Notes: a model not told the origin generated them from the letters alone. DNA of 36,173 nucleotides from Candidatus Aminicenans sakinawicola JGI OTU-1 (GCA_000493965.1 AWNV01000030.1:1-36173), one strand, 5' to 3'. Counted from the stretch's first letter, positions 1-33,928 are shown. Program-made: numbers and translations.

Positions 1-126
1 GGAAAAATCAAAGTAATTAGCAGATATAATGGAGAATGAATATTGGTATCAGCAATTTTTATGAATAACCCAGGAGGACTTGACGAAAGCAAGTATAACA
101 AGTAACTTTAAGATGGAAAAGTTAAA

Positions 127-477
127 ATGACCAAAAAAACAATATTTTCTATTATTCTGATTGTTCCCCTTATGTTTATTATTTCTGGCTGTGTTTCTTC
201 CATTAACCAAAACCAGCTTAGTTATGGCATTCAGGCCGCTAAAAAAGATTTGTGGAATGAAGCTATCTTCCGCTGGGAAAAATGCTTAAAATCTAATCCA
301 AATTCTGCATCAGCACACAACAACCTGGCTGTGGCTTATGAAAAAAAAGGTCTACTGGATAAAGCAAAAAAAGAATACGAAGCGGCATTAAAAATCAGCC
401 CGGGAAATAAACATATCAAATCAAACTATGAAAATTTTAAAAAAGCCAGAGAGAACACCGATGATGAAAAAAAATAG
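127..477 (+). CDS. Small TPR-repeat lipoprotein (signal peptide plus lipobox, one to two TPR motifs)
   Basis: The N-terminus MTKKTIFSIILIVPLMFIISGC has a hydrophobic core followed by Cys, a lipobox-like ISGC. The motif AHNNLAVAYEKKGLLDKAKKEYEAALKISPGN fits the TPR consensus. A GGAAAAG stretch precedes the ATG. Its 3' end overlaps the next ORF, suggesting an operon. Confidence 0.6.
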   Translation: MTKKTIFSIILIVPLMFIISGCVSSINQNQLSYGIQAAKKDLWNEAIFRWEKCLKSNPNSASAHNNLAVAYEKKGLLDKAKKEYEAALKISPGNKHIKSNYENFKKARENTDDEKK

Positions 478-1120
478 GTTCATTCTTTTAATTATCATTC
501 TGATTCTTTCTTCCTGTACATCAAACGAATACTGGAAAGTAAGAATTGAAGTTTCTCAAAAACCTGCTGTCAATCTCGATAAATTTAAAGAATTTATCAT
601 TACCGACTTCTTTGTAAAAAAAGAAACAAAAAATTTCAACATCAATAATGAACTCAAAGACTATTTTGCTACAGAACTCGGGCAAACACTTGAAAATAAA
701 ATCTCCTCAAAGGAAATTCCTTTAGAGAAAGAAGACGTTTTCAAGGATGAGGATTTCTGGAAAAATCTTTCCGTCGACGCAAAAGAATCCGTTCTTTTTA
801 CGGGAAGCATTCAATACACACAGGAAACCCGCAAGGCCCTTATAAAGAAGCTAAAGAAAGAGCAGGAAAGCCCATTCACATCAGAATCAAAATTCGCTCA
901 AAGAAAATTTTACACTCTTCAGCTTGAGGTTTATCTCATTGACACACAAACAGGAAAAATTGTGTACAAAAGAAATTTCAGAGAAACAAAAGCCTATAAA
1001 AATCCAAACCAGACTGCCTATTTCGCATTCTTTGACCTTGTTAAGAATATCAAGGATAAGCTTTTCGCCCATATGCTCGGTATTAAAAAAATCCAGGAAA
1101 GATATATCATTTCTAACTAA
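461..1120 (+). CDS. Hypothetical lipoprotein
   Basis: The ORF track begins at 428. The internal start MMKKNRFILLIIILILSSC at 461 gives a canonical signal peptide plus a lipobox Cys. No recognisable catalytic motif. It is co-directional with, and 18 nt upstream of, the large OM protein gene. Confidence 0.5.
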   Translation: MMKKNRFILLIIILILSSCTSNEYWKVRIEVSQKPAVNLDKFKEFIITDFFVKKETKNFNINNELKDYFATELGQTLENKISSKEIPLEKEDVFKDEDFWKNLSVDAKESVLFTGSIQYTQETRKALIKKLKKEQESPFTSESKFAQRKFYTLQLEVYLIDTQTGKIVYKRNFRETKAYKNPNQTAYFAFFDLVKNIKDKLFAHMLGIKKIQERYIISN

Positions 1121-1138
1121 ATTAAACGGGGAGAAAAT

Positions 1139-4096
1139 ATGAAAAATTTAATAAAACATATCACATTTTTCCTTCTTTTAGCTGCTTTGGTATCTTCTGG
1201 TTTCTCACAATTCATATATTTCCCTTACTACGGGAAAAATAAAGTCCTTTATACAAAATTTGATTGGGACCACTACGAGACGGATCATTTCGATATTTAC
1301 TATTACTCCAAAGATGACCGAACTCTAAAAAGAATTGCAGAATTAGCCGAAAGCGCATACAAAAGAATAAGCAATGACATTAAGCACGACCTTTCCGCCA
1401 AAGTGCCCTTTCTTTATTATTGCACGACAACTGATTTCCAGCAGACAAATCTTTTTCAGATGCCAGAGGGAGTACTGGGCGCAGCAGAACCCCTCCTTTA
1501 CCGCGTTGCCCTGCACGGAGACATGCCTGATGACGAACTCCAAGACCTTGTAGAACATGAATTGACACATATCTTTGAGTACGACCTGCTCTGGGGAAGT
1601 CCGGGAGGAGTACTTTATTCGGTTTCCCAACCTGCTAGCTGGATTATGGAAGGCTTTTCAGAGTATAATACACATAACTGGTCCTGCTGGTCCTCTTTAA
1701 TCGTACGCGACAGCGTTCTCAACGACAGGATTCCAGAAATAAACAAAATGGGAGAGCTGTCTTCTCAATACCTGCTGCCTCGAGATCCAGCTTACGACTT
1801 TGGTCATGCAATATATGAATTTATTGAGTTCAAATACGGAAAAAATGGAATCCAGTCCTTCTGGCATTCAATGAAGAACTCTTCTCTCGCTGGGAAAACT
1901 TACCCTATAAAAAGAGCCTTCAACAAAGAACACAAAGAGTTTAATTACGAATTCAAAAAATACCTTCGTAACAAATTCAAACCCTTTCTCTTAAGGGAAA
2001 ACCCTGAAGATTACAGCCTTCCCATAGGTCCTGAATTCCCTTTAAACCCATATTACTTTTCCTTCTCTCATGCTCTTTCTCCATCAGGAGATATAGTTGC
2101 CATCCTCACTTATAATGTTAAAGACAGCGACATCGATATTGTTCTTCTTTCAACAAAGGACGGAAGTGTTATCAAGAACATTACAAAGGGCTATACACTT
2201 AAGTACGAGCACATTAAAAGGGAAATCGATCCGTCCAAGGGAAAAGACCTCTCGTGGTCTCCGGATGGAGACATGATTGCTTTCTTCGGCCGGGCAGGGC
2301 AAAAACATTCGCTCTATATTGTAAACGCATTAACAGGAAAAACCTTAAGAACAATTAAGATTCCTTACGACCAGCCCGCATCCCCTTGCTTCTTTCCTGA
2401 GAAAGAAGAGCTTCTTTTTACTGCGTTCCAAAACGGCATTCCAGACATATTCAAAATAAACCTTGAGAACGGCAAAATCCTTAACATGACAGAAGACGAC
2501 GCCTTTGAGAAGGCTCCCAGTATTTCACCTGACGGAAAAGTTGTTGCCTATACAATTCATCTCGATACTTATGACAAACTTTTTCTGTCCCCAACAAACA
2601 ATTTAAAAAATAAGACCCAGCTTACTTTCGGAAGGGCTAACACAATCACTCCTGAGTTCTCTCGAGATTCAGAAAAAATATATTTTTCTGGCGATACTCG
2701 AGGTGCGTTCAATATTTACTCTTTAAACCTGAAAACAGGCGAACTCAAACGCTATACAGATGTCACGACAGGAAACTTTTTTCCTTTTCCTCATCCGAAA
2801 GGTCCCAAAACAATAATATTTTCTTCATTCAACAAGGGGTCATTTCAAGTCTTCAAGAGCGATCTCGAAGGAGAAGTCGAGAAAAACATCTCTTTTGCTG
2901 AAAAATCACCTGATGATGAATTCAAGAAGTTTGAGCCCATAGTGACTTTCGAAATTGACAAGAAAAAGATTCAAGCACATAAAGGCATGGGCAAATTATA
3001 TCTTACAGGCCGACCTCCTGTTGATACTATTATTTCAACAGATGGTTCAATATACGGAGGTTCTGCCCTCTCTTTTTCCGATCTGTTTAGAGATTATACC
3101 TTTTCGCTCACAGCTTACCAGGTAAGAAATTTCCGTTCCTACTATTTCTCCTATCTTAATCAAAAAAACAGACTGCAATACATGGCATCAGCTTTTCAGT
3201 ATACTATCTTTTATTATCCTTCTTATTATTACTTTAATCCTTCTCTTTTCAACTTTCTGTCATACCGCGACGCTATTGCCACAAGAAAAATCTCAGGAAT
3301 AAACGTCAGCGCCTATTATCCTTTCAACCTGTACTACAGAACACAAGCAACCTTATCTTACAATCACTACGAAGAAGATTTTTACGACCCTTACCTCAAT
3401 CAATTTTATGGGGGCGGTGGCTACTCTATGTTCTGGAATGGAAGCATGATTTCAACCTCTCTCTCTCTTACAGGGGAAACCACTCACTTCAAATACTATG
3501 GCCCTGCAGCAGGCAATACTTTCCAATTTGGTGTAACTCAGGGAATTCCAATTTCAAGCAGCTTCCTCCGGAATACAACTGTTCAAGCGGACTACCGGAA
3601 GTACCTCAATATCGGAAGCGATTTCCTCCTGGCTTTTCGTATAAATTGTTTCGTCAGCCGCGGAAAAAATCCATATATCACCTATTTTGGAGGAAACAAC
3701 CAGGTGCGATCAGCTTATTACTATAGTATTGTCGGAAATGAGGGTTGGTATTCAAACCTTGAATTCCGATTCCCTGTCATAAACGCTGCTAATACTATTA
3801 TTGGACAAATTGGACCTGTTCGAGGAACTCTCTTCTTTGATGTTTCCCGTTCAAAACTAAAAGGATACTCCGCTCAATTTGCCTCATATGTTGGAACTGA
3901 TGAATACGGACTTCCTGAATACAGATTCTTTGATGCTCTAGGATCCTACGGTTTCGGTTTCCAATTTTTCTTTTTGGGGCTGCCTTTCCATATAGAATTT
4001 GTAAAGAGGCTGGAATTTCCTGATTTTTCTAACCCTCTCAAGTTTGATACGTTTGGAAAATTTCAGACGAAATTTTGGATTGGTTTCGACTTTTAA
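1139..4096 (+). CDS. Large outer-membrane protein with a zincin-like (Peptidase_MA-like, HEXXH) domain, a TolB/PD40-like beta-propeller and an Omp85/BamA-type C-terminal beta-barrel
   Basis: There is an N-terminal signal peptide (FFLLLAALVSSGFSQ). HELTH lies at nt 1553-1570, with MEGFSEY about 30 residues downstream, matching the HExxH...EGxAEY pattern of MA-clan zincins. Repeated SPSGD/SPDGD/SPDGK/SRDSEK motifs are typical of PD40 propeller blades. The C-terminal roughly 340 aa is rich in Y/G/S/F with alternating hydrophobicity. The stretches EFRFPV...GTLFFDVSRS and GFGFQFFF...KFWIGFDF end in a terminal Phe, which is the Omp85 surface-antigen barrel signature. Confidence 0.75.
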   Translation: MKNLIKHITFFLLLAALVSSGFSQFIYFPYYGKNKVLYTKFDWDHYETDHFDIYYYSKDDRTLKRIAELAESAYKRISNDIKHDLSAKVPFLYYCTTTDFQQTNLFQMPEGVLGAAEPLLYRVALHGDMPDDELQDLVEHELTHIFEYDLLWGSPGGVLYSVSQPASWIMEGFSEYNTHNWSCWSSLIVRDSVLNDRIPEINKMGELSSQYLLPRDPAYDFGHAIYEFIEFKYGKNGIQSFWHSMKNSSLAGKTYPIKRAFNKEHKEFNYEFKKYLRNKFKPFLLRENPEDYSLPIGPEFPLNPYYFSFSHALSPSGDIVAILTYNVKDSDIDIVLLSTKDGSVIKNITKGYTLKYEHIKREIDPSKGKDLSWSPDGDMIAFFGRAGQKHSLYIVNALTGKTLRTIKIPYDQPASPCFFPEKEELLFTAFQNGIPDIFKINLENGKILNMTEDDAFEKAPSISPDGKVVAYTIHLDTYDKLFLSPTNNLKNKTQLTFGRANTITPEFSRDSEKIYFSGDTRGAFNIYSLNLKTGELKRYTDVTTGNFFPFPHPKGPKTIIFSSFNKGSFQVFKSDLEGEVEKNISFAEKSPDDEFKKFEPIVTFEIDKKKIQAHKGMGKLYLTGRPPVDTIISTDGSIYGGSALSFSDLFRDYTFSLTAYQVRNFRSYYFSYLNQKNRLQYMASAFQYTIFYYPSYYYFNPSLFNFLSYRDAIATRKISGINVSAYYPFNLYYRTQATLSYNHYEEDFYDPYLNQFYGGGGYSMFWNGSMISTSLSLTGETTHFKYYGPAAGNTFQFGVTQGIPISSSFLRNTTVQADYRKYLNIGSDFLLAFRINCFVSRGKNPYITYFGGNNQVRSAYYYSIVGNEGWYSNLEFRFPVINAANTIIGQIGPVRGTLFFDVSRSKLKGYSAQFASYVGTDEYGLPEYRFFDALGSYGFGFQFFFLGLPFHIEFVKRLEFPDFSNPLKFDTFGKFQTKFWIGFDF

Positions 4097-4186
4097 AAAA
4101 ATTGATATAAACTTCTTGAAATCCAAAAATGGGAGTGTTATCATACCCGTGCCTCCTCAAAATCGGCAACCAGCAAAACCTTAAGG

Positions 4187-4218
4187 TTTTCCACAGTTGT
4201 GGAAAATTATGTGGAAAT
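4187..4218. promoter_or_regulatory. Cluster of three DnaA-box-like 9-mers, two forming a perfect palindrome, immediately upstream of dnaA
   Basis: TTTTCCACA at 4187-4195 and its exact reverse complement TGTGGAAAA at 4198-4206 are separated by 2 nt. TGTGGAAAT at 4210-4218 is a third, weaker box. The consensus is TTATCCACA, and the first two boxes differ from it at one position each. The position, 14-45 nt upstream of the dnaA ATG, fits dnaA autoregulation or the oriC-proximal box cluster. Confidence 0.55.
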
Positions 4219-4231
4219 CTTAATTATAAAA

Positions 4232-5563
4232 ATGCAACACGAAGATAAATTTAACTATTGGTTACAAATCAAAAATAATATTAAAGATAAAATTGATAAA
4301 AACAGCTATGAAACCTGGCTTGATCCTCCTGTCTATATAGGAAAGGAAGACAATATTATTTACATAAAGGTTCCTAATTCTTATTTTAAAGAGTGGCTGT
4401 CATTTCACTACTCAAAACTAATAGATAAATCCTCTCAAGAATTATTTGGTAAGGTTTATGAAATAAAATATATTTTAGAAGAGACGACATCTTCATTCAT
4501 ACGCCGGCCTCCAGGCGAGAGAAAATCAAAACACGGCTCTTTGTTAAATCCTAATTTAAATCCTAAATATACTTTTGAAAATTTTATTGTCGGCTCATGC
4601 AACCAGTTCGCACATGCGGCTGCAATCGCAGTGTCTAAAAACCCTGCCACATCATATAATCCTCTCTATATTTACGGTGGTGCAGGCCTAGGAAAAACCC
4701 ATCTGATGAACGCTATTGGACATTATATTCTAAACGATATCCGTGGACTAAAAATATTATATATTACAACTGAGAAGTTTATGAATGACCTTATTAATCA
4801 TTTACAATACGGGAAAATCCTTGATTTTCGTCAGAAATACCGGAGCATAGACGTGCTCCTTATAGATGATATCCACTACCTTGCAGGAAGAGAAAGAACA
4901 AAAGAAGAATTCTTCCACACATTCAACCATCTTTACGACAGCCAGAAGCAAATAGTTATATCAAGCGATTGCCCACCTAAAGAGATACCAAACCTCGAAG
5001 AAAGATTTCGTTCCCGTTTTGAATGGGGCTTAATTGCTGACCTAAAGCCTCCAGATATTGAAACGAGGATTGCTATCCTTAAAAAAAAATCAGAGTTAGA
5101 CGGAATCAATCTACCTGAAAGCGTAGCTTTATATATTGCAGATAAAGTTCACTCTAATGTAAGAGAGCTTGAAGGATTCTTGCGACGTGTTATTGCTTAC
5201 GCTTCACTCAAAGGAAAAGAGATAGACCTAGATATTACTAAAGATGCATTGAAAGACTTGTTGGATTCCACATCAAATATTATTACGGTAGAAAAAATTC
5301 AAAATATCATTTGTCATAACTTTAAGATGAATCTATCCCAACTAAAGTCGAAAAATAACTCCCCAAAGGTTGTCTTTCCAAGACAGATCGCTATGTACTT
5401 ATCAAAGGAGCTTACGAAAAGTTCTCTTCCAGAAATAGGAAAAAAATTCGGTGGAAAACATCATACAACTGTAATTCACAGTATTCAAAAAATAGAAAAG
5501 ATGCGAAATGAAAGTCCAGAATTCAACAGAGAAATAAACAAAATAATTGACTATATTCACTAG
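4232..5563 (+). CDS. dnaA: Chromosomal replication initiator protein DnaA
   Basis: The AAA+ Walker A is GGAGLGKTHL. A Walker B / sensor region follows (VLLIDDIHYLAGRERTKEEFFHTFN). The C-terminal DnaA-box-binding helix-turn-helix is KFGGKHHTTVIHSIQKIE. The ORF track starts at a GTG at 4199. The ATG at 4232 (MQHEDKFNYWL...) is preferred because the boxes sit just upstream. Confidence 0.95.
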   Translation: MQHEDKFNYWLQIKNNIKDKIDKNSYETWLDPPVYIGKEDNIIYIKVPNSYFKEWLSFHYSKLIDKSSQELFGKVYEIKYILEETTSSFIRRPPGERKSKHGSLLNPNLNPKYTFENFIVGSCNQFAHAAAIAVSKNPATSYNPLYIYGGAGLGKTHLMNAIGHYILNDIRGLKILYITTEKFMNDLINHLQYGKILDFRQKYRSIDVLLIDDIHYLAGRERTKEEFFHTFNHLYDSQKQIVISSDCPPKEIPNLEERFRSRFEWGLIADLKPPDIETRIAILKKKSELDGINLPESVALYIADKVHSNVRELEGFLRRVIAYASLKGKEIDLDITKDALKDLLDSTSNIITVEKIQNIICHNFKMNLSQLKSKNNSPKVVFPRQIAMYLSKELTKSSLPEIGKKFGGKHHTTVIHSIQKIEKMRNESPEFNREINKIIDYIH

Positions 5564-5674
5564 AAGAATCAATCTATTATGAAATTTTTTCACATTTCAT
5601 TTGCTTTTATAATTATTGTTATTTATTTTTATCTATAATTAGATAATAATAATCTAATATAGAGAGGTGGAAAA
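5564..5674. other. AT-rich dnaA-dnaN intergenic spacer, a candidate DNA-unwinding element or oriC segment
   Basis: This 111-bp spacer is by eye roughly 80-85 percent A+T, with ATAAT/TTATT runs. Only degenerate DnaA boxes are present (TTTTTCACA, TTATCTATA, two mismatches each). In many bacteria oriC or its DUE lies between dnaA and dnaN. Confidence 0.4.
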
Positions 5675-6775
5675 ATGAAATTTATAATTGAAAAAGAAAG
5701 AATCCTTAAGGAGCTACAAATATTTCAAGGAATTCTAGAAAAAAGAAGTACAATGCCTATACTGGCAAATATATTAATTAGTGTATTAGAGGATAGAATT
5801 GAAATAACTGGAACTGACCTGGAGGTAGGAATAAAATGCCATTTTCCAGCCAGGATGTATGAGAAAGGGGTAATTACAATATCAGGTAAGAAGTTATTTG
5901 AAATAGTTAAATCCATTTCAGAGGGGAAAGAAGTTGTTTTTGAAGAGAGCAATGACTTAATGATGAAGATTTCTGCAGGCGACAGTCAATTTAAAGTGCT
6001 GTGCTTGTCCAAAGAAGACTACCCTCCGGTTCCTGAGCCGAAATTTATAAAAAACATTTTTCTCCAAGGCGATAAAGTAAGGGAGATGATAGAAAAGGTA
6101 TATTTTTCAATAACACAGGAACAGAGGTACTATTTAAATGGTGCGCTAATGATGCTTAAGAATGATACTATGGAGTTAGTAAGCACGGATGGGCATAGAC
6201 TTGCTTACACTTCGGTATCTATGGACAATATGAACTTAGAAAGCGAAATAAAAGGAATAGTGTCAAAAAAGACTCTTGGTGAATTAAAAAAATTTGAAGA
6301 TGATTCTATTGAATTTGACCTTGATGAAAATAATTTATTTTTCAGGGTTGGAAACAGAACACTTATTTCAAGAGTGATTGATGGTAAATTTCCAAATTAT
6401 GAAGCTGTTATCCCGAGCGACAATAAAAACATAATGATTGTTTCGAGAGAAGAATTTGCAGATGCGATTAGAAGGGTTTCTCTTTTATCTACAGAGAGAT
6501 CAAGAGGAGTCAAGTTTAATATTGAAAAAGACCAATTAAGACTATTCTCATCTAGTCCTGAAATTGGAGAAGCCAAGGATAAGGTTGATATTGACTACGA
6601 TGGCGAACAAATCGAGGTGGGATTTAACTCTCAGTATCTTCTTGATTTTCTTTCAATTGTAAAATCAGACAAGGTTCGGTTTGAACTAAAGGATGAAAAC
6701 AGCGCTGTATTAATTAAACCAGAAAACAACGAAGAGATAGAATATAAGTATGTGTTAATGCCAATGAAGATTTAA
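5675..6775 (+). CDS. dnaN: DNA polymerase III beta subunit (sliding clamp)
   Basis: The N-terminus MKFIIEKERILKELQIFQGILEKRSTMPILANILI is a classic DnaN start. The length of 366 aa and the three-domain layout fit, and the gene sits directly downstream of dnaA. A GAGAGGTGG RBS is present. Confidence 0.95.
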   Translation: MKFIIEKERILKELQIFQGILEKRSTMPILANILISVLEDRIEITGTDLEVGIKCHFPARMYEKGVITISGKKLFEIVKSISEGKEVVFEESNDLMMKISAGDSQFKVLCLSKEDYPPVPEPKFIKNIFLQGDKVREMIEKVYFSITQEQRYYLNGALMMLKNDTMELVSTDGHRLAYTSVSMDNMNLESEIKGIVSKKTLGELKKFEDDSIEFDLDENNLFFRVGNRTLISRVIDGKFPNYEAVIPSDNKNIMIVSREEFADAIRRVSLLSTERSRGVKFNIEKDQLRLFSSSPEIGEAKDKVDIDYDGEQIEVGFNSQYLLDFLSIVKSDKVRFELKDENSAVLIKPENNEEIEYKYVLMPMKI

Positions 6776-18362: not shown

Positions 18363-18560
18363 CGTGTGAAGTATAAAAAAATTTAATGCTAAGTTTATTA
18401 ATTATACGGTGGTGTTGTCAACCCCAAAATTAAAAATTAAAGGTCCCTAATCTCTATTTCAAATTAGATTATTAAAATATTATTTTTGCGTTTTGTTCAT
18501 CACTCATGTAAGATAAGGGAAATTATTAGATGAGTTTTGAGACTGAAAAGGGAAGATAAT

Positions 18561-19694
18561 ATGGATATAGAAATCAGAGAAGTAAAAACACACAAGGAAA
18601 TGAAAAAATTTATCTACCTGCCTGAAAAAATTCATGCTGGAAGCGAAAACTGGGTTCATCCTATTTATCAGGATGAATGGAAATACTTTAATCCGGACAA
18701 GAACAAGGCCTTTTCCTTTTGCGAAACAGTTCTGTTGCTTGCCTATAGAGGAAAACATGTTGTTGGCAGGATAATGGGCATTATCAACAACCGGTATAAT
18801 GACAGCCGGAAGGAAAAGACAGCCCGGTTTGGATATTTAGAAACGTGGGAAGACCAGGATGTGGTCCGTTCTCTTCTATGTTATATTGAGGACTGGGCAC
18901 GAAAACAAGGAATGACAAGGGTCATCGGTCCATATGGTTTTACAGACCAGGATCCAGAGGGCTTTTTAATAGAAGGCTTTGAGAATCGTGCAACAATAGC
19001 CACTTATTATAACTTTGAATGGATGCCTGGACTTATAGAAGAACAAGGGTATGTGAAAGACATAGATTATTTTGTATATAAGCTTGAGGTTCCCAAAGTG
19101 ATTCCAGAATTTTACAAGAGGATTTACGAGAGAGTAAAAAGAAATGGGAGTTTCAAGGTTATTGAATTCAGCAAAAAAAAAGAAATCAAGAAGTGGATAA
19201 AACCGGTGCTTCATCTTATGAATGAATGTTATATTGGCAATAATATTTATGGATATGCTGCCCTTGATGAACAGGAAATGGAACAGTTAGCAAAGCGTTA
19301 CATGCCCATCCTGGACCCGAGGTTTTTAAAAGTTGTAACAAAGGATGATGACATTGTAGCCTTTGTCATCGGAATGCCTGACATGACTAAGGGCATTCAA
19401 AAAGCCAGGGGAAAACTTTTTCCTTTAGGGTTGTTTAAAATCCTGAGAGAGGTCAAGAAGACAAAACAGTTGGACTTACTGCTTGGTGCTGTTAAAGAGA
19501 AATACCGTGGACGTGGTATAGATGTGCTTATGGGGGTGAATATGCTTATGTCAGCCAGTGAAGCTGGCCTGGAAGTGATAGATACGCATCATGAGATGGA
19601 AGAGAATGTGAAGGTAAGGGCTGAAATGGAAAAGATGGGAGGGAAAACATATAAGCGCTTCCGTGTTTATGGGAAAAGCCTGCCTACCGAATAA
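18561..19694 (+). CDS. Hypothetical protein, possibly a GNAT-fold acyltransferase-like protein
   Basis: The ORF track starts at a TTG at 18537. The ATG at 18561 has the RBS AAAGGGAAG 6 nt upstream. A weak resemblance to acyl-CoA N-acyltransferase-fold proteins is pattern-level only (...HVVGRIMGIIN... and ...IVAFVIGMPD...). Confidence 0.4.
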   Translation: MDIEIREVKTHKEMKKFIYLPEKIHAGSENWVHPIYQDEWKYFNPDKNKAFSFCETVLLLAYRGKHVVGRIMGIINNRYNDSRKEKTARFGYLETWEDQDVVRSLLCYIEDWARKQGMTRVIGPYGFTDQDPEGFLIEGFENRATIATYYNFEWMPGLIEEQGYVKDIDYFVYKLEVPKVIPEFYKRIYERVKRNGSFKVIEFSKKKEIKKWIKPVLHLMNECYIGNNIYGYAALDEQEMEQLAKRYMPILDPRFLKVVTKDDDIVAFVIGMPDMTKGIQKARGKLFPLGLFKILREVKKTKQLDLLLGAVKEKYRGRGIDVLMGVNMLMSASEAGLEVIDTHHEMEENVKVRAEMEKMGGKTYKRFRVYGKSLPTE

Positions 19695-23080: not shown

Positions 23081-23101
23081 TTGTTGGCCGAGAAAGAACA
23101 A

Positions 23102-25453
23102 ATGATAGTATCAGATAAAGCAAATCAAATAGGCGAATCTCCCACTCTAAAGGTAACGGCTAAAGCAAAGGCCATGAAGGCTTCAGGTGTCGATGTTATA
23201 GACCTGAGTGTAGGCGAGCCGGATTTCCCTACACCCGAGAATGTGAAATCAGCCGGGATAAAAGCCATAGAGGAAAACTTTACAAAGTATACCCAGGTTG
23301 ATGGAATCCCACCGTTAAAAGAAGCAATCATAAGCAGGATGAAGCAAGATCTGGGCCTGACATATGAAAAAAATGAACTCATTGTCTCCTCTGGCGCAAA
23401 GAGTGCCCTCTATCATCTTATGCTTGCCCTGGTAAACGAAGGCGATGAAGTCATCATTCCCTCTCCTTACTGGGTTACTTATCCGCATGCTGTTTCGCTT
23501 GCAAAGGGGAAAGCAGTAATCATTCCAACCAAAGAAGAAAACGGCTTTCTGCTTACTCCGGAGCAGTTGGAATCAGCTATCTCTCCTGCAACAAAAGCCG
23601 TTCTTTTGAACAACCCTTCCAACCCCACAGGAGCTGCATATCAAAAACATGACCTTGAAGCTCTTGCAGACATTGTTCTGGAAGAAAATATCTACGTTAT
23701 TGCAGACGAAATATACGAAAAACTTATCTTCGACGACTTTCACTTTGTGAGTTTTGCATCTCTTGGAGAAGACATAAAAAAGAAAATAGTTATTATCAAC
23801 GGGGTTTCAAAGGCCTATTCAATGACCGGATGGCGGATAGGCTATGCGGCAGGCCCTTCAGAAATCATAAGTGCAATGGCCAGGATTCAGAGCCACACGA
23901 CATCCAATGCCTGCTCGATTTCCCAAAAGGCAAGCCTGGAAGCACTCAGCGGACCCCAGTATGAAATTTCAAAAATGGTTTCAGAATTCCAGAGGCGAAG
24001 GAATTACGGCTTGATGAGACTCCAATCTATTCCTAATATTTCCTGTTCTAAGCCAAAAGGAGCTTTCTATCTTTTCCCCAATGTTTCTTCTTGCTACGAA
24101 AAAGAATTCAATAATGTCCTGATCCGCAACTCCTACGGCCTTGCGTATTACTTACTAAAAGAAGCCAAAGTCGCAGTCGTTCCTGGAGATGCTTTTGGCA
24201 ATGATGATTATATCCGCATATCCTATGCAACATCCATGGAAAACCTTGAAAAGGGCATGAACAGAATCATTGAAGCTTTATCCCGCCTGAAGACAGCCAA
24301 AAGGGTCAAGCGTATTCGCTTAAACAATACTCAAACCAGGATAAAAAAATCCGTCCCTATCGATTCCTCTATATCCGTACAGATGAGAGATGCACTTACA
24401 TCTGAAATGGAAACACATATCGGTTATGAGAACTATTTTGAGTGGAATGCAAACATTAACGGAGTCATTGTGCAACTGCGTACAAATGTATCCCACCTGT
24501 ATGATTTCTGGGTTGAGAACTGGTATCCAGCCCAGCTTGAAGCAGACCTGGAACCCCATGGCATTATTTACGCTATAGACGGGATATCAGGGAGAGAACC
24601 GCGCTCTTTTTACAATTCTGAGACTAAAACAGGCATACTTGTTAACACAGATAACTACGGGCCGTTACGCAGCCTCGCTCTCGGTCTTGTTGCGGATGTC
24701 TCTGAAAGGCTTTTCAAGGTTCATACGATACGGGGGATGTCTGCAGACATGGAAGGAGATGGCTTGATTCTTGTCGGACCAAAAGGAACCAAGAAAACCG
24801 AACTGTTTTTATCCCTGCTTCAGGATAAGAGATTCCGTCTGCATGCTAACGACATTGTTTTTGTCCGTTTTTCAGGAGTAACAGCGCTGGCTGATTCTTC
24901 TGAAAGAAAATTTTATATGCCTACAAACACAGTGCAATCCCTTCCCAAATTGGCATCTCTATTTGACAACAGCAAATGTGAAAATGTTATTACACGAAAA
25001 GAAGACTGTCAAAACGATAAGTGCCTGCAGCTCGATGACTGCAGACTCGACAGGGGTTCCCCATTTTGCTACGAGGCAGCAAAAAACTCCTATTCAATGC
25101 TTGACCCCTACTGGATCGAAGGCCCGGCAAAACACGTAAAACGTACGGTTCTCCGGTGGATATTTATCCTTCGCTGTGATACGGTCTCTCCACCTTTTGT
25201 AAAGATGGACCCCGAAGACGCTTTGCGCACTCTTGAGTATGGTGAAAGCATTGGAATCAAGAAAGACATCAGCGCATCCAAAAGCCAACCATATTACAAC
25301 CCGCATCTTCTGGTGACAACTGGAGAGCGAATGGAATTTCAAAAGAATTTCTTCAGGCGCCTTCTCGAAAATATACCCTGCTATTTATTCAACAGCGGAG
25401 CAGCTTCAGCAGAGGATATAAAGCGCATAGTGTCGGGAGAAGATAAGACTTAA
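23102..25453 (+). CDS. Fusion protein: an N-terminal class-I aspartate-type PLP aminotransferase (about 395 aa) joined to a C-terminal degenerate PEPCK/HprK-superfamily P-loop domain (about 385 aa)
   Basis: The N-terminus has LSVGEPDFPTP, NPSNPTG and GVSKAYSMTGWRIGY, where the SKAY lysine is the PLP Schiff-base Lys. The C-terminus has HTIRGMSADMEGDGLILVGPKGTKKTELF, which aligns with E. coli PckA [29 protein letters not shown]. The P-loop Gly is replaced (GPKGTKKT versus GxxxxGKT). LHANDIVFV replaces LIGDDEHGW. The NTGW-equivalent reads YLFNSGAA. It is a single uninterrupted ORF. The ORF track starts at a TTG at 23081, and ATG 23102 is preferred. Confidence 0.75.
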   Translation: MIVSDKANQIGESPTLKVTAKAKAMKASGVDVIDLSVGEPDFPTPENVKSAGIKAIEENFTKYTQVDGIPPLKEAIISRMKQDLGLTYEKNELIVSSGAKSALYHLMLALVNEGDEVIIPSPYWVTYPHAVSLAKGKAVIIPTKEENGFLLTPEQLESAISPATKAVLLNNPSNPTGAAYQKHDLEALADIVLEENIYVIADEIYEKLIFDDFHFVSFASLGEDIKKKIVIINGVSKAYSMTGWRIGYAAGPSEIISAMARIQSHTTSNACSISQKASLEALSGPQYEISKMVSEFQRRRNYGLMRLQSIPNISCSKPKGAFYLFPNVSSCYEKEFNNVLIRNSYGLAYYLLKEAKVAVVPGDAFGNDDYIRISYATSMENLEKGMNRIIEALSRLKTAKRVKRIRLNNTQTRIKKSVPIDSSISVQMRDALTSEMETHIGYENYFEWNANINGVIVQLRTNVSHLYDFWVENWYPAQLEADLEPHGIIYAIDGISGREPRSFYNSETKTGILVNTDNYGPLRSLALGLVADVSERLFKVHTIRGMSADMEGDGLILVGPKGTKKTELFLSLLQDKRFRLHANDIVFVRFSGVTALADSSERKFYMPTNTVQSLPKLASLFDNSKCENVITRKEDCQNDKCLQLDDCRLDRGSPFCYEAAKNSYSMLDPYWIEGPAKHVKRTVLRWIFILRCDTVSPPFVKMDPEDALRTLEYGESIGIKKDISASKSQPYYNPHLLVTTGERMEFQKNFFRRLLENIPCYLFNSGAASAEDIKRIVSGEDKT

Positions 25454-25487: not shown

Positions 25488-27317
25488 ATGGACAAAAGCA
25501 TTTATAACCAGGAAGCATATAAAAAATTTTCAGAGGAACTTCAGAGAGTTTTAAAAGGTCCCAATATAAAGACAGTAGATTTAAAATGGCTTGAACCTCG
25601 GGCAAAAGAAACAGGGATTAAAACAAAATACGGGTCTTATGGATGGAGATCAGCCATATCAAGCCGGATCGCTCCCAAAACAGTCTATCTCGGCAGGGAA
25701 GCAGTAAGGCTTACGCGGCCGACTCCAGTTCACGAATCCATAATCGCCAACGCTCCAGAAGAACTGGATAAAGTCCTCCACCTGCTTCGGACGCTTCCTT
25801 TCTATCATATAAGGAGGCAGATGGGAGAAAACGACTCATTCAACCCAATGTGTAATCTCTATGTCTCTGATGCAGACCTTATCAACAGACGGATCGGGCT
25901 CATGTGGGGGACAACCATGTTTAAGCCTGGAAAACGGCCTGGGCCTGAATTTACAATGATCCACATTCCAGAAGAGCATCCTCTCCGTCAGCAAATACTT
26001 GCTATACCGGAATACAGGATCAATATCGCTCTCGGAACAGACTATTTGGGGGAGGATAAAAAAGGATTCCTCCGCCTGGCAATGTGGATGGCCGATGAGC
26101 AGGGGATGATAGGTCTCCATTCAGGAACTAAGATTGTTACGGTCAGAGATGTCAACAATAAACTTAAAACCTACGGCGTTTTTCTTTTCGGATTGACTGC
26201 AACAGGAAAATCCACCTGGTCCTGCCACCAACTCGGACTCGATTATGGAAAAGGAGAAAAAACATTAGTCACTCAAGACGATATATGTTTCCTTAGAAAA
26301 GATGGCTCAGCCTTTGGATCAGAAAACAATTTCTTTGTAAAAACAGATGTCGAACAAGAATACCAGGAAGCAATGTACAATGCCTTAATCGATAAAACCG
26401 CTCTCTTTGAGAACGTCATGATCAAATCCAACGGAAATGTAGATTTTCTGGATGAAAGCCTAACGGCAAACGGAAGAGCCGTTCTTCAGCGCAACAAACT
26501 CAAAGTCAACATAAAAGGCAAAATGGTAGGCATCTTCTCTAAAACCATAAACCTCCCGCCGCTGGAAGAACTGGATGGGATTGTATTTGCCTTTATCACG
26601 CGGAGGAACACCATAATGAACTTTGCCCAGGAACTAACTCCTGAACAGGCAGTTCTTGCATACCTATGGGGGGAAAGCACCCACAGTTTTGCCAGTCAGC
26701 CTCTCAAGGCTGGAGAATCCGTACGTATCGTCGGAACAGATCCTTTCATAGTCGGTTCCAGGGCCAGAAAAGTCAACCGTTTCTACGATATCATAATGAC
26801 TCTTGCCAGCAATTATCCGGGAAAAGTCAAATTCATGCAGTACAACACAGGAGGAATGGGAGAGATCATTGAGACCTCTGAGGAGAACGGAAAAGAGAAA
26901 AAGAGGCTTGTCCGTAAGGTCGCCCGTGTTCCGATCAGCCTCATGTCCCAAATTCAAAGAGGCGACCTGCGCGGAACTAACTCCTATGAAAAAGGAAGAC
27001 TCGGTACAAAAGAAATCAAGCTTGCCGAAGGAAAAAGTCTTGATGAATGGAATGTCAACAAATTCTATTCTGAAGAGCAAATCCAGAATTATATCAAGGA
27101 CCTTGTCGAAGGAAGAAGAAAATTCACAGAAGAAGTATCAGAGGAAGGGCTTCGGAACGAAGTTCTCTATGCTGCAGAGCGCTCCTTCCGTATAGATAAA
27201 AGCACAAAAAAAACGAGTATTTCTGTGCCCGAAATGGGTTCTGCAGGGGAGGAAATATTCTCATACAGGGAATCCAAATCACGACCGCGGCGTGCCGGAT
27301 TCTGGCGGAGCCGTTAA
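25488..27317 (+). CDS. Divergent phosphoenolpyruvate carboxykinase (ATP)-like protein with an intact P-loop and a C-terminal extension
   Basis: FLFGLTATGKST is the kinase-1a motif GxxxxGKS. LTPEQAVLAYLWGES aligns with E. coli LTADQTQYHFLSGFTAK. QYNTGGMGE aligns with NTGWNG. The metal and catalytic segment is altered: TQDDICFLRKDG replaces IGDDEHGWDDDG. The protein is 609 aa against about 540 for PckA. It lies directly downstream of the fusion gene. Confidence 0.7.
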   Translation: MDKSIYNQEAYKKFSEELQRVLKGPNIKTVDLKWLEPRAKETGIKTKYGSYGWRSAISSRIAPKTVYLGREAVRLTRPTPVHESIIANAPEELDKVLHLLRTLPFYHIRRQMGENDSFNPMCNLYVSDADLINRRIGLMWGTTMFKPGKRPGPEFTMIHIPEEHPLRQQILAIPEYRINIALGTDYLGEDKKGFLRLAMWMADEQGMIGLHSGTKIVTVRDVNNKLKTYGVFLFGLTATGKSTWSCHQLGLDYGKGEKTLVTQDDICFLRKDGSAFGSENNFFVKTDVEQEYQEAMYNALIDKTALFENVMIKSNGNVDFLDESLTANGRAVLQRNKLKVNIKGKMVGIFSKTINLPPLEELDGIVFAFITRRNTIMNFAQELTPEQAVLAYLWGESTHSFASQPLKAGESVRIVGTDPFIVGSRARKVNRFYDIIMTLASNYPGKVKFMQYNTGGMGEIIETSEENGKEKKRLVRKVARVPISLMSQIQRGDLRGTNSYEKGRLGTKEIKLAEGKSLDEWNVNKFYSEEQIQNYIKDLVEGRRKFTEEVSEEGLRNEVLYAAERSFRIDKSTKKTSISVPEMGSAGEEIFSYRESKSRPRRAGFWRSR

Positions 27318-29924: not shown

Positions 29925-31331
29925 TCAGCGCTCTTTAATTTCTTTCTCTATGTTGTTATCTTCATTAAAAGACTTCAGTCCGTATTTGTCGATCATATAT
30001 CTTAAAGAACGGTAATTTATTCCTAATAGAGAAGAGGTTTCCTTGAGATTTCCGCCGGTGCTCTTGAGAGCATGTCTGATGTAGTTGGAGGAGATCTCGT
30101 CCAGGGTTTTATTCAGGTTAAACTCAGGCTGGGATAGAAAATCTGTCTCTATATGGCTCTTTGGAGAAAGGAGTTCATCCGGAAGACTTCCTTGAGTAAT
30201 GGTTTCTCTTTCTTCGATAACAACAGTTCTTTCGATTACATTTTCCAGCTCCCTGATATTCCCCGGCCAGGGATAAGATTCAAAGACCTTTATCACTTCG
30301 GGAGCAACTCTTTTCTTCCTTTTTTCCATCTTCTGGCAGTATTTCTGGATAAAATGAGACACAAGATAAGGAATATCTTCCTTTCGCTTCCTTAATGGCG
30401 GCATCTCGAGAGAGAGGACATTAAGGCGGTAAAACAGGTCTTCCCGGAATTTTCCTTCTTTTATATTCTTTTTTAAATCCTGATTCGTTGCCGCAATTAT
30501 TCGAACATCCACGGAAATTTCATCCGTTCCTCCCACTCTTCTGATTTTCTTCTCCTGAAGAGCCCTGAGGAGCTTAACTTGTGTCCAGGGAGTCATCTCT
30601 CCGATCTCATCCAAAAATAGAGTCCCGTGGTCTGCTACCTCAAACATTCCTTTCTTATTTGCAATCGCTCCTGTGAAAGAGCCTTTTACATGGCCGAACA
30701 GCTCGCTTTCGAGCAAGCCCTCGGGTAAAGCCCCGCAGTTTATGGTAACAAAAGGTTTTTCCACGCGCAGACTCTTGGAGTGAATGGCGCGTGCTGCTAT
30801 TTCTTTTCCTGTCCCGCTTTCTCCTGTGATAAGAACCGTTGAATCGGTACGTGCTATTCTCTCAATCAGCCCGAATATTTCATTCATTATCCTGCTTTCT
30901 CCAATTATATTCTCGAAACCGAATCTTTCTTTGAGCTGTTCTTTTAGAAGAATATTCTCCTGCTTCAACCTTTTCTTTTCCAGGCCCTGGGCAATGATGA
31001 TTTTCAGCTCTTCTATATCGAAAGGTTTGACAACATAATCTGTTGCCCCTTCTTTAAGCGCTTCTACGGCCTGTCTGATAGTGCCGAAAGCTGTGATCAT
31101 GACAACAGGAACATCAGGTCTTTTTTCCCTGACATGCATTAATATTTCCATTCCGCTTATTTGGGGAAGTTTTATATCAGAAAGAACGATATCAAAGTCT
31201 TCTCTATCGATATATTCAAGAGCTTTGCTGGCTGAAAAGAATGTTTCTACCTGATATCCCTCTTTTTTGAATACGACATTTAAAAGGTCAAGGATGCTCT
31301 TTTCATCGTCTATAATCAGTATTTTTTCCAT
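29925..31331 (-). CDS. pilR: Sigma-54-dependent response regulator (NtrC family, PilR-like)
   Basis: A receiver domain is present (DDE...D54-like DIVLSD, ...KP). The AAA+ sigma-54 activator has Walker A GESGTGKE, the GAFTGA-loop variant GSFTGA and ESELFGH. A C-terminal Fis-type HTH is present. Confidence 0.9.
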   Translation of the reverse strand: MEKILIIDDEKSILDLLNVVFKKEGYQVETFFSASKALEYIDREDFDIVLSDIKLPQISGMEILMHVREKRPDVPVVMITAFGTIRQAVEALKEGATDYVVKPFDIEELKIIIAQGLEKKRLKQENILLKEQLKERFGFENIIGESRIMNEIFGLIERIARTDSTVLITGESGTGKEIAARAIHSKSLRVEKPFVTINCGALPEGLLESELFGHVKGSFTGAIANKKGMFEVADHGTLFLDEIGEMTPWTQVKLLRALQEKKIRRVGGTDEISVDVRIIAATNQDLKKNIKEGKFREDLFYRLNVLSLEMPPLRKRKEDIPYLVSHFIQKYCQKMEKRKKRVAPEVIKVFESYPWPGNIRELENVIERTVVIEERETITQGSLPDELLSPKSHIETDFLSQPEFNLNKTLDEISSNYIRHALKSTGGNLKETSSLLGINYRSLRYMIDKYGLKSFNEDNNIEKEIKER

Positions 31332-31340
31332 TTTTTTTAC

Positions 31341-32618
31341 TTACTCCCTTTTCCTGTCATTGCCTTCCGGTAAAACAATTACAATCTCTGACCCTTTGTT
31401 GGGCGTGGAAAATACATGTATTTTCCCATTGTAATCGTCAACAATACGTCGAACTACTGCCATTCCGATTCCTTTTCCCGTGTCGAAACCAGAATAAAAC
31501 GGCTCAAACATTCTTTCTCTTTCTTCTTTTCCCATGCCCTTTCCCGTATCGGCAAATTTCATCTGGATTCCTTTCTTTTTCCTCCTTGTAAAATCCACTG
31601 TTAACGTCCCGCCATCAGGCATTGCTTTTAGAGCATTTTTTAAAAGATTCCAGAATATTTGTTTGAATTGAGCTTTATTTCCATAATAATTAACTCTTGC
31701 TGTTTTATAATTTCCCTCTATCTGGTAATTTTCATTGATCTCGCCGCTTCTTTTAAGCAGTGTCAATATTTCTTTCAAAACAGAAGGAAGGTCAATCGAA
31801 GCAAAATCTTGCGTTCCAGGAGAAGCTAAATTTAGGAATTGTTCTATGGATTGAGAAATGTTCTCCGATTCTCTGACAACAATGTCCATCAAATGTCTTT
31901 GTTCTCCTGTCAAATCCATCTCATCTCTGAGCACCTGAACAGAGCCTGATATGGCAGCAAGAGGATTTCTTATTTCATGGGCAAGGTTAGCCGATGTTTC
32001 CCCTGCCACGGCAAGATCCTTTTTTATCTCAAGCTCCTTCTGAGCCAGGCGGAGTTCATCTCTTGTTTTTCTCAAATTTCCGGTTAAATGATTTATTAAA
32101 AAGGCCACGATAATAAAAACACCCCATGCAGTAAGAATATTGCTTAACACCGCGCTCAAAGAAAGCTCTTGAGACAGTTCAGGATATAAATATGGAATTA
32201 TTGCATAGTACATCCCGTCGATGAGAAGCCCATAAAATACTGCGGATAAAGCTGCAACAAGATATGTCGTTCGTTTCGAGATAACGACGCTTGCGGCAAT
32301 GATTTCAAATATATACAACGAATAGAATGAACCCTTTATCCCACCCGATATGTATATAAGAGCAGTAATCAGCAGAAGATCGATGAATATCTGTAGATAT
32401 GCCTGAAATGTATAATTTTTTGCCGCATAGAAAAGGATAAAATATACAATGGATAATAAATAAACAAATAGAACCAGATAATAAAGATAATAAAAAGAAT
32501 TAAGATTGAGGAGAACCTCTGTACTGTACTGAATTATAACAGTAGAAACAGCAAGAGAAGTCACAATGATCAAGCGGACAATGATAAACCAAAAAATATC
32601 GTTTTTCTTTGTGTTCAC
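31341..32618 (-). CDS. pilS: Sensor histidine kinase (PilS-like, polytopic membrane N-terminus)
   Basis: About six N-terminal TM helices are present. The H-box is HEIRNPLAAISG. The HATPase_c G-boxes are DTGKGMG and GKGIGMAVV. Confidence 0.8.
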   Translation of the reverse strand: MNTKKNDIFWFIIVRLIIVTSLAVSTVIIQYSTEVLLNLNSFYYLYYLVLFVYLLSIVYFILFYAAKNYTFQAYLQIFIDLLLITALIYISGGIKGSFYSLYIFEIIAASVVISKRTTYLVAALSAVFYGLLIDGMYYAIIPYLYPELSQELSLSAVLSNILTAWGVFIIVAFLINHLTGNLRKTRDELRLAQKELEIKKDLAVAGETSANLAHEIRNPLAAISGSVQVLRDEMDLTGEQRHLMDIVVRESENISQSIEQFLNLASPGTQDFASIDLPSVLKEILTLLKRSGEINENYQIEGNYKTARVNYYGNKAQFKQIFWNLLKNALKAMPDGGTLTVDFTRRKKKGIQMKFADTGKGMGKEERERMFEPFYSGFDTGKGIGMAVVRRIVDDYNGKIHVFSTPNKGSEIVIVLPEGNDRKRE

Positions 32619-32709
32619 AACTTGATTCTCTATTTGAAATATCCGGGTTTCCTTTTACTTGAGATTTACTACCCGATTTAAATACCAGGGCAAATTAGCC
32701 AACGATTCT

Positions 32710-33912: not shown

Positions 33913-33928
33913 TTTTTACCCCTTTTTT

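Follow-up and report, generated by a model that had tools for sequence, protein, structure and literature searches.

Three closely packed genes on the same strand occupy positions 127 to 4,096 of a 36,173-nucleotide stretch of DNA (the window; AWNV01000030.1:1-36173, assembly GCA_000493965.1) from Candidatus Aminicenans sakinawicola JGI OTU-1. They encode a small TPR lipoprotein, a second lipoprotein (LP2) and a large protein of 985 aa (Table 1). The three ORFs lie where the original prediction had sited them, and all the motifs that it quoted from the large protein were found at their translated positions, as were the SPSGD/SPDGD/SPDGK blades. LP2 has alternative starts at 428, 461 and 464 with a shared end at 1120, and the 218-aa form used here is the choice of the gene callers. 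The TPR gene and LP2 overlap by 14-17 nt. This is the only overlap at the locus: LP2 stops 18 nt upstream of the ATG of the large gene, with a GGGGAG Shine-Dalgarno inside this gap, and, contrary to what had been stated, neither lipoprotein gene runs into the large one. Full-length homologs of the 985-aa protein at 63-72% identity occur in hundreds of Aminicenantes assemblies, its relatives occur in at least 597 species genomes, and the barrel region alone gave 598 representative clusters. The feature is far beyond chance.

Table 1. Genes, domains and motifs of the locus (nt, position in the window; residues, numbering of the 985-aa protein).
Feature	Residues or size	nt	Strand	Basis or remark
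Gene 1, small TPR lipoprotein	116 aa	127..477	+	ORF
Gene 2 (LP2), lipoprotein	218 aa	464..1120	+	MKKNRF start at 464
Gene 3, peptidase-propeller-Omp85 protein	985 aa	1139..4096, stop codon included	+	ORF, homologs, AF2 model
Signal peptide, type I, no Cys	1-23/24	1139..1210	+	sequence; model helix 2-20, then disorder
Gluzincin domain (clan MA, Peptidase_MA_2 / M1- or M9-like)	~40-290	1256..2008	+	conservation, profiles of relatives
HELTH zinc site	H140-E141-x-x-H144	1556-1570	+	translation
Third zinc ligand position	E171	1649-1651	+	
EGFSEY	171-176		+	translation
Tyr aligned with M1 catalytic Tyr	Y219	1793-1795	+	
PD40 β-propeller, six-bladed, TolB-like	~300-585	2036..2893	+	PD40 profile; structure match to TolB
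Linker, short	~586-617	2894..2989	+	DSSP
Omp85-type β-barrel	~618-985	2990..4093	+	structure model, motifs
L6 motif GGNNQVRS	851-858	3689-3712	+	lid-lock R857
NLEFRFPV (β12 E875-x-R877-x-P879)	873-880		+	translation
RGTLFFDVSRS	895-905		+	
β13 FFDVS (in RGTLFFDVSRS)	899-903	3833-3847	+	lid-lock D901
C-terminal β-signal FWIGFDF (in FQTKFWIGFDF)		4073-4093	+	translation

Four parts make up the 985-aa protein: first a signal peptide, then a peptidase-like domain of the gluzincin type, next a TolB-like PD40 propeller with six blades, and last an Omp85-type barrel with about 16 strands. Q24, at the end of the signal peptide, is nearly invariant in alignments of relatives. The AF2 model of the whole protein has a pLDDT of 79.8 and a pTM of 0.76. 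Among the Pfam families expected for this protein, PD40 was recovered, whereas PF01103 and the peptidase models, PF13485 included, gave no match even at E ≤ 1. Because Pfam on the protein itself gave PD40 only, the assignment of the peptidase and of the barrel relied on the structure model and on relatives.

The N-terminal domain carries the two marks of a gluzincin metallopeptidase of clan MA(E), an HExxH motif (H140-E-L-T-H144) and, after a further 26 residues, a Glu as third zinc ligand (E171), and both are invariant in all alignments. In 26 relatives at 28-39% identity, H140, E141, H144, E171, G172 and Y219 are invariant, against a mean column identity of 36%. This difference favors an active enzyme over a decayed one, and the zinc peptidase is probably active. 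PF13485 was matched by 13 of the 26 relatives (best E 5e-12) and Peptidase_M9 by three. When a profile of this domain was compared with PDB sequences, it retrieved the M1 cold-active aminopeptidase 3cia at a marginal E of 9.6e-4, in an alignment pairing HELTH with HELAH, MEG with NEG and Y219 with the Tyr of PYVKG. By this alignment, Y219 matches the catalytic Tyr that M1 aminopeptidases have in PY(V/E)KG, but their spacing is HEXXH-X18-E, whereas it is X26 in the 985-aa protein. The G[FA][AS]E117P segment, located 23 residues ahead of H140 and outside the alignment, recalls the M1 GXMEN exopeptidase motif. The catalytic fold of gluzincins is thermolysin-like. In the model, residues 44-280 form a mixed β/α N-lobe and a helical C-lobe, with pLDDT mostly >85; in structure searches with the whole model, propellers and barrels took up the places of the match lists. 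The invariant zinc residues and the position of Y219 are in agreement with the peptidase domain that had been predicted from the HExxH...E pattern.

The TolB-like blades announced for the middle domain were recovered by the PD40 profile, and TolB is the best match of the propeller by structure as well as by sequence. Weak matches to Tricorn_N/Tricorn_2nd, DPPIV_N and APH-like_N were also obtained. A TolB equivalog was considered and rejected, as the score was 130 bits for a TIGR02800 cut-off of 343, covered the propeller portion only and came without tol-pal neighbors. TolB has an N-terminal α/β domain of its own and a tol-pal operon, whereas the propeller described here lacks both and is fused to other domains. 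A propeller beside a peptidase domain is likewise found in the tricorn protease, DPP-IV, prolyl oligopeptidase and acylaminoacyl peptidase. However, these belong to the serine peptidases and have their propeller ahead of the catalytic domain, whereas in the 985-aa protein the zinc peptidase comes first and the whole protein is predicted to be membrane-anchored.

The propeller-barrel linker of about 35 residues contains neither helices nor a β-α-α-β-β unit, as seen by DSSP on the model, and is too short for a POTRA domain; Pfam found no POTRA match in the 26 relatives. The proposal that peptidase and propeller stand in place of POTRA was thus borne out. According to the model, the C-terminal region is a barrel of the Omp85 superfamily with about 16 strands, and the structures nearest to it are those of the insertases BamA, Sam50 and TamA, TpsB being absent from the best 60. 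The strand count was derived from DSSP and loop parity, with β1 poorly modeled (pLDDT <50 at residues 628-638), and the positions of L6 and β13 agree with 16 strands joined by short turns on the periplasmic side. In the Omp85 lid-lock, the Arg of the L6 motif (V/I)RG(Y/F) pairs with the Asp of the β13 motif (F/G)xDxG (PMC7644211). The corresponding R857 is kept without exception by 60 close and 26 distant relatives, and E875 of β12 is likewise invariant. As its consensus the family has [LIV]RG[FY] in L6 (G in 17/26), where Aminicenantes including our protein have VRS, and FxDxG in β13 (F 22/26, D 23/26, G 23/26), where F899-F-D901-V-S retains the Asp and substitutes the Gly. Among relatives that phmmer connects to the barrel with E values from 1e-28 to 1e-55, P0128 (35.3 bits) and P0174 (44.2 bits) passed the PF01103 cut-off of 24, and P0261 passed that of ShlB (25.2 against 22.7). 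In all, PF01103 was matched by 7 of the 26 relatives and ShlB/FhaC models by 3/26. Altogether, the conserved lid-lock pair and the nearest structures uphold the Omp85-type barrel of the original prediction. BamA, TamA and Sam50 share with it the barrel of about 16 strands, the L6 inside the lumen, the L6 Arg, the β13 Asp, the β12 Glu and the C-terminal aromatic, but they have the canonical VRG(Y/F) and FxDxG, whereas the 985-aa protein has VRS and FFDVS, no POTRA, and an enzyme and a propeller in its place.

The TPR protein presents a signal peptide with a lipobox (IISGC, Cys22), about two TPR units (TPR_2, E 1.4e-10, plus further TPR models in Pfam) and a Lys/Glu-rich tail. The motif GLWxEAx[FY]RW[EK]K is kept across lineages. 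Its best NCBIfam matches are TPR lipoproteins of the PilW/Tgl/GltE type, far under the cut-offs. The lipobox Cys is restricted to Aminicenantes-type loci, and in several other lineages the signal peptide is of the plain Sec type and lacks the Cys. The suggested likeness to BamD found no support: BamD/YfiO models of Pfam and NCBIfam gave no match at E ≤ 1, the protein is not always lipidated, and with 116 aa and about two units it is half the size of BamD, a lipoprotein of ~245 aa with five TPRs. LP2 has an LSSC lipobox (Cys18 of the 218-aa form), conserved in 63/67 loci, and matched no Pfam family. It probably has an α/β fold of the LptE/PelC/FlgT/TolB-N type, with structure matches to LptE, PelC, PqiC, FlgT and CsgG, and is matched better by other lipoproteins than by the TolB N-domain. 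LptE, PelC, PqiC, FlgT and CsgG are outer-membrane lipoproteins that partner barrels or form rings. LP2 appears to resemble LptE, PelC, PqiC and FlgT in fold, but without a sequence-level family match, and it is bigger (~200 aa mature) with extra long strands.

The synteny expected for the three genes was found beyond Aminicenantes too. The TPR gene, LP2 and the large gene are adjacent in 70 of the 84 testable loci across Acidobacteriota, with a spacing of usually 4-21 nt, and relatives whose barrels are 27-40% identical keep this order among unrelated flanking genes. The partner genes are missing from one monophyletic clade only. On the evidence of gene order, the link of the large gene to its two small partners is tight and ancient. 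This conserved three-gene module seems to be unreported.

The architecture of the large protein had been presented as new. This part of the claim did not stand, since Heinz and Lithgow (2014; Front Microbiol 5:370; PMC4104836) had already delimited a 'WD40-like' Omp85 subfamily in which PF07676 (PD40) repeats precede the barrel, with TolB-like and aminopeptidase/collagenase-like regions and without POTRA, the latter being also absent from the noNterm and Metallo subfamilies. Their set was drawn from Bacteroidetes, Myxococcales, Chlorobi, Rhodothermus/Salinibacter, Vibrio and others; Table S3 covers ~100 members, including several paralogs per genome, for which Phyre2 gave a BamA/TamA barrel, a TolB propeller and an M1 aminopeptidase or ColH/ColT collagenase N-terminus (best aminopeptidase hits 1z5h, 4kxd, 4ar1 and 3qnf) (PMC4104836). 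A 2024 paper repeats this description as 'divergent WD40 and peptidase domains'. Our three domain assignments, reached independently, equal those of Table S3, with PD40 repeats of TolB best match before the barrel and a zincin of M1 aminopeptidase/collagenase type at the N-terminus, and from this identical architecture we infer that the 985-aa protein is a member of the subfamily. Since the family has a name but remains uncharacterized, only half of what the original prediction would have taken as a refutation applies: we found in the literature neither a functional study of the subfamily nor experimental data on any member. Heinz and Lithgow treat the propeller solely as a BamB-like scaffold, with the idea of a BamA-BamB fusion (PMC4104836), and their paper does not describe the linked TPR and LP2 genes or the conservation of catalytic residues, both of which were seen here.

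Also, PlpD (type Vd, patatin-POTRA-Omp85) combines an Omp85 barrel with an N-terminal hydrolase, as the 985-aa protein does. PlpD has a POTRA and a patatin lipase which is exported and released, whereas the 985-aa protein has no POTRA, carries a zincin and a propeller, and has partners that point to the periplasm. Type Vd membership was rejected, since neither patatin nor POTRA was matched in Pfam searches. The ability of Omp85 proteins such as PlpD to export their N-terminal enzymes counts against a firm orientation.

We propose, with a probability of about one half, that the module is an outer-membrane-anchored, periplasm-facing zinc metallopeptidase complex, likely acting in envelope quality control or turnover. 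The 985-aa protein would be exported by Sec and its C-terminal barrel would insert in the outer membrane. Because β1 starts from the periplasm in all known Omp85 barrels, peptidase and propeller would both hang there, directly under the barrel. The TPR partner with a plain Sec signal and no Cys in several lineages would be periplasmic by default, which favors a periplasmic working side. In this putative complex, to which gene linkage points, the gluzincin domain would be catalytically competent and the propeller would filter substrates or offer them a place to dock. Propellers filter or dock in peptidases of the tricorn, prolyl-oligopeptidase and DPP-IV type, and that of TolB binds Pal as well as disordered peptides. 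LP2 would be an LptE/PelC-like lipoprotein in the inner leaflet of the outer membrane and, together with the TPR protein, would form the accessory subunits. The task would be to degrade, at the outer membrane, envelope proteins or peptides that are unfolded or mis-assembled, the barrel being an anchor and possibly also a recognition site for clients bearing a β-signal. The periplasmic protease or quality-control role suggested beforehand is retained as plausible. The closest functional analogy is BepA, a soluble periplasmic M48 zinc protease with TPR in the same chain, which docks on BamA for OMP quality control. BepA shares the combination of HExxH metalloprotease, TPR and Omp85 barrel, but in the module described here peptidase and barrel form one covalent chain, and the TPR units lie on a small protein of their own.

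The barrel could alternatively act in a type V-like manner and move its own peptidase-propeller passenger to the surface, PlpD-style, for extracellular degradation of proteins or peptides in nutrition. Drawing on PlpD, Heinz and Lithgow raise self-export as a possibility for Omp85 proteins that bear enzymes (PMC4104836), the superfamily includes translocators, to which the ShlB/FhaC matches add, and numerous relatives of near-identical architecture with several paralogs per genome are common for nutrient-acquisition hydrolases. We nevertheless consider it unlikely, given that types Vb and Vd both have the POTRA that is absent here, that the nearest barrels are insertases rather than TpsB, that many lineages have a TPR partner with an ordinary Sec signal, that LP2 resembles periplasm-facing lipoproteins, and that a passenger of ~590 residues with a six-bladed propeller would be unprecedented. 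The barrel most resembling BamA, TamA and Sam50, the conserved lid-lock residues, which are essential to Omp85 activity, and the accessory lipoproteins typical for BAM would fit an alternative BAM/TAM-like insertase for a dedicated OMP set, with the propeller as a fused BamB-like scaffold (the published fusion idea; PMC4104836), LP2 and the TPR protein as BamD/E-like subunits, and the peptidase-like domain only binding or processing. This appears unlikely in the face of the lack of POTRA domains for taking up substrates, a six-bladed TolB-like propeller where BamB has eight blades, a TPR protein that is not BamD-like, and a whole catalytic set whose invariance would be needless in a mere binding module. 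Insertion and proteolysis could however be coupled, so that an insertase would be in part compatible with the metallopeptidase complex that we prefer.

A less probable option still is a Tol-Pal-like tether, in which the propeller and LP2, whose fold also recalls the TolB N-domain, would bind a Pal-like or peptidoglycan-associated partner and link the outer membrane to the wall, while the zincin would trim peptidoglycan stem peptides or lipoprotein tethers. The low TolB equivalog score, the closer likeness of LP2 to lipoproteins other than the TolB N-domain, the lack of a linked Pal/OmpA-like gene in any locus inspected and the lack of evident peptidoglycan-binding domains all argue against it. 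A more novel reading, though an unlikely one, would be a dedicated 'reverse BAM', in which the lateral gate would capture stalled or damaged β-barrels or β-signal clients and pass them to the propeller and on to the attached zinc peptidase, with the LptE/PelC-like lipoprotein and the TPR adaptor being obligatory. If true, this would be the first Omp85 machine yielding degradation instead of insertion or secretion.

The three-gene cluster put forward in the original prediction, in which a small TPR lipoprotein gene and a second lipoprotein gene (LP2) precede a gene for a 985-aa peptidase-propeller-barrel protein, was confirmed with small corrections, and all the motifs quoted there were found in their places. 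Genes 1 and 2 share 14-17 nt, and the stop of LP2 is separated from the start of gene 3 by 18 nt, a spacer which holds a ribosome-binding site (GGGGAG). A promoter and terminator scan over positions 1-4300 gave sites for the cluster no stronger than those in shuffled sequence.

Positions of the features discussed in the text
Feature	Position	Strand	Remark
Gene 1 (TPR partner)	127-477	+	ORF, 116 aa
Gene 2 (LP2)	428/461/464-1120	+	ORF, 218-230 aa
Gene 3 (large protein)	1139-4096	+	ORF, 985 aa
DnaA-box-like site	4187-4195	+	8/9
DnaA-box-like site	4198-4206	-	8/9
dnaA	4199-5563		directly after gene 3, then dnaN
ORF	18537-19694	+	385 aa
Aminotransferase-domain protein	23081-25453	+	790 aa
PEPCK_ATP-matching protein	25488-27317	+	609 aa
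Pilus-like gene cluster	29925-36105	-

The structural interpretation of the large protein also proved right, as judged from a model, a fold search and the domains of relatives. The Pfam families expected in it were recovered in part: the Pfam scan detected PD40, whereas PF13485 and PF01103 gave no match even at E<=1. The AlphaFold2 model, built with 60 homologs (mean pLDDT 79.8, pTM 0.76), shows in order the signal helix of an exported protein, a mixed alpha/beta domain (residues ~44-280), 24 strands arranged as six groups of four (residues ~306-583), a helix-free linker of ~35 residues and an all-beta domain (residues ~620-981). Comparison of this model with the PDB by Foldseek retrieved TolB (E 2e-11) and the isolated barrel of E. 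coli BamA (6fsu_B, E 2.8e-9; 6qgw_A, TM(target) 0.54), the BamA-barrel matches spanning 390-420 aligned columns with a probability of 1.0. Searches of the PDB by sequence, with the large protein or a 60-sequence profile, returned only TolB and other propellers, and no BamA. The propeller is TolB-like, with a partial match to TIGR02800 (E 1e-37); orthology to TolB was rejected, as the score of 130 bits lies under the cut-off of 343.

The nature of the C-terminal domain was further supported by its relatives. The last 396 residues, used as the query of an exhaustive phmmer search, retrieved 598 representative clusters, of which 238 had E<=1e-10; proteins of 930-1050 aa with 27-40% identity, aligned at their C-termini, are numerous among them. 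When 10 barrel relatives were scanned against Pfam, PD40 was present in all and Peptidase_MA_2 in 8; for the distant relative P0233, the latter match was of 32.6 bits (cut-off 32.4). Two other distant relatives, P0128 (35.3 bits) and P0174 (44.2 bits), passed PF01103 Omp85 (cut-off 24), and another, P0261, passed ShlB. Across a set of 26 diverse members, PD40 was found in 25, Peptidase_MA_2 in 13 (best E 5e-12), Omp85 in 7 (best E 4e-15), and Peptidase_M9 and ShlB in 3 each; POTRA Pfam matches were found in none of the 26.

The Omp85 signature consists of (V/I)RG(Y/F) on loop L6 and (F/G)xDxG on strand beta13; a salt bridge between the Arg and the Asp links the two, sometimes together with a beta12 Glu (PMC7644211). 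The family consensus of the large-protein relatives reads [LIV]RG[FY] and FxDxG. In contrast, the Aminicenantes branch, including the window protein, carries VRS and FFD[IMV][ATS], so that the Arg and Asp of this lid-lock are kept and the glycines are not. In the alignment of the 26 sequences, which are 28-39% identical to the window protein and average 36% identity per column, residues G851, G852, R857, E875, R877 and P879 of the barrel are invariant. Strand beta1 is poorly modelled; the DSSP string of the barrel would fit a 16-strand topology if the short turns are read as periplasmic, which would place GGNNQVRS (residues 851-858) in L6 and RGTLFFDVS (895-903) on beta13.

On the peptidase side, H140, E141, H144, E171, G172 and Y219 are invariant in the same alignment. 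Against PDB sequences, a profile restricted to the N-terminal domain matched M1 aminopeptidases (E 9.6e-4 for 3cia and about 0.5 for aminopeptidase N). HELTH falls on HELAH, W-x-M-EG on WLNEG, which holds the third zinc ligand, while Y219 is aligned with the tyrosine of PY-x-KG. Between H144 and E171 lie 26 residues, a longer gap than the X18 of M1, and the domain was therefore assigned to the gluzincins of clan MA(E) but to no firm family. A motif located 23 residues before H140, G[FA][AS]E117P, recalls the GXMEN motif of M1; falling outside the M1 alignment, it is only a lead.

The architecture of the large protein is not new: it is a named, though unstudied, Omp85 subfamily. When the Omp85/TpsB superfamily was divided into subfamilies, one called 'WD40-like' was defined by PF07676 repeats plus PF01103, its propeller was found closest to TolB, and a BamA-BamB-like fusion was suggested (Heinz and Lithgow, 2014; PMC4104836). 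For about 100 members, Table S3 of that work gives Phyre2 matches to BamA 4k3b or TamA 4c00 and to TolB 2w8b/2ivz (each about 100%), and a 'best aminopeptidase hit' to 1z5h, 4kxd, 3qnf or the collagenases 4ar1/4ar9 (about 99%). A 2024 paper characterises the subfamily by its 'divergent WD40 and peptidase domains'. Full-text literature searches returned no experimental or functional work on the peptidase-propeller-Omp85 architecture, which is thus named and catalogued but uncharacterised. By its architecture, the window protein is an Aminicenantes member of this subfamily. What is usefully new is that the three-gene module is conserved and that the catalytic site is conserved in full.

Conservation of the synteny in related genomes, which had been proposed as a check, was indeed observed. 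On Aminicenantes contigs (large protein 63-100% identical), the order is TPR gene, LP2, large gene, dnaA and dnaN. Relatives at 27-40% barrel identity likewise have a TPR gene (116-210 aa) and an unannotated gene (190-300 aa) with the large gene, in unrelated surroundings (dprA and ribosomal L21/L27; cation efflux and CorC; topA). Among genomes scanned at one per species, a relative was present in at least 597, and the 80 best loci belong to Aminicenantes and other Acidobacteriota. When upstream ORFs were scored with an HMM of LP2 and against the TPR protein, both partners were detected at 70 of the 84 testable loci, mostly at a distance of 4-21 nt to the large gene; a further locus was partial, and neither partner was present at the other 13. 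Neighbour-joining analysis of the large proteins groups these 13 in a single clade (Vicinamibacterales, Luteitalea, Solibacteraceae), and the module occurs on every other branch, including the deepest (loci L007 and L008). This makes the module ancestral in the lineage, with a single loss or relocation. On the contig of P0233 (JGI 3300043331), a single 342-aa TPR-containing gene (1677-2705) lies directly upstream of the large gene (2720-5758), where the other loci have a TPR gene of 116 aa and an LP2 of ~220 aa. The two may be fused in it, and such a TPR-LP2 fusion would speak for their physical interaction.

Other observations were made at these loci. The adjacency to dnaA is kept within Aminicenantes and not in other lineages; in the window, the sign of the GC skew flips at about 4-5 kb, by dnaA, and two inverted DnaA-box-like sites (TTTTCCACA) flank the dnaA start on both sides, the number of such sites across the window (15 versus 9.3 expected) not being above chance. 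Near the module of L008 (9949-12973, +) is encoded another propeller-hydrolase fusion, a protein of >1180 aa that joins Tricorn-type propellers with amidohydrolase domains. Many genome records with close relatives (up to 96% identical), among them those of L009, L011, L015 and L018, are binchicken MAGs that bear the title 'uncultured Eubacteriales bacterium' or 'Clostridia bacterium'; by gene content and by the relatives of their proteins they are Aminicenantes/Acidobacteriota, and these titles are probably placeholders or wrong taxonomy.

A lipobox (IISGC) and about two TPR units (TPR_2, E 1.4e-10) make up the recognisable features of the gene 1 product. In NCBIfam it comes closest to TPR lipoproteins of the PilW/Tgl/GltE type, with scores far under the cut-offs of these models. 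The analogy with BamD was not borne out: no BamD/YfiO model was among its Pfam and NCBIfam matches, and a Cys follows the signal peptide in Aminicenantes-type loci, the signal peptide being a plain one in Vicinamibacteria, Marinacidobacterales, L007 and L008. TPR partners of both signal types share the motif GLWxEAx[FY]RW[EK]K (longer form FGIxxAxxGLWxEAx[FY]RW[EK]K), which identifies a specific family rather than generic TPR proteins. LP2 is a putative LptE/PelC-like lipoprotein matching no family in Pfam or NCBIfam. It has at least 460 unnamed homologs. Its lipobox Cys is invariant, and at 63 of 67 loci a Cys comes after the hydrophobic stretch. In a profile search with divergent LP2 copies, the best 120 matches listed were all from Aminicenantes and bore neither a name nor a Pfam domain.

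Omp85 proteins are universal engines of outer-membrane biogenesis, and several of the subfamilies catalogued so far, the peptidase/propeller one included, lack a known function. As beta1 of Omp85 barrels begins in the periplasm and the TPR partner is often plainly Sec-exported, the N-terminal domains of the large protein would be periplasmic. We propose that the large protein, LP2 and the TPR partner, which are genetically coupled and all exported, may assemble as a complex, with an active peptidase to which the propeller would govern access or docking. Our best guess, to which we give about an even chance, is that the complex degrades, at the outer membrane, envelope proteins or peptides that are unfolded or mis-assembled, a role resembling that of BepA, which works with BAM. 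The same domains could otherwise serve PlpD-like export of the enzyme to the cell surface, form a BAM-like insertase with accessory subunits, or act as a Tol-Pal-like tether. With its peptidase site fully conserved, its lid-lock kept and two specific partners across the entire phylum, a protein type so far only catalogued now offers a hypothesis that can be put to the test. If envelope proteolysis by the complex proves true, it would constitute a new functional class in the Omp85 superfamily and an alternative to quality control of the DegP/BepA type in non-proteobacterial diderms.

Elsewhere in the window, the 385-aa ORF has no Pfam match at E<=1e-5. The class I/II aminotransferase domain of the 790-aa protein spans residues 38-396 only, leaving a C-terminal half of ~390 residues unmatched, and the sole match of the 609-aa protein is a partial PEPCK_ATP (residues 152-348). 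The minus-strand cluster encodes a sigma-54 response regulator, a PilS-like histidine kinase, a T2SSF (PilC-like) protein and a T2SSE ATPase, and resembles a locus for the regulation and assembly of type IV pili.
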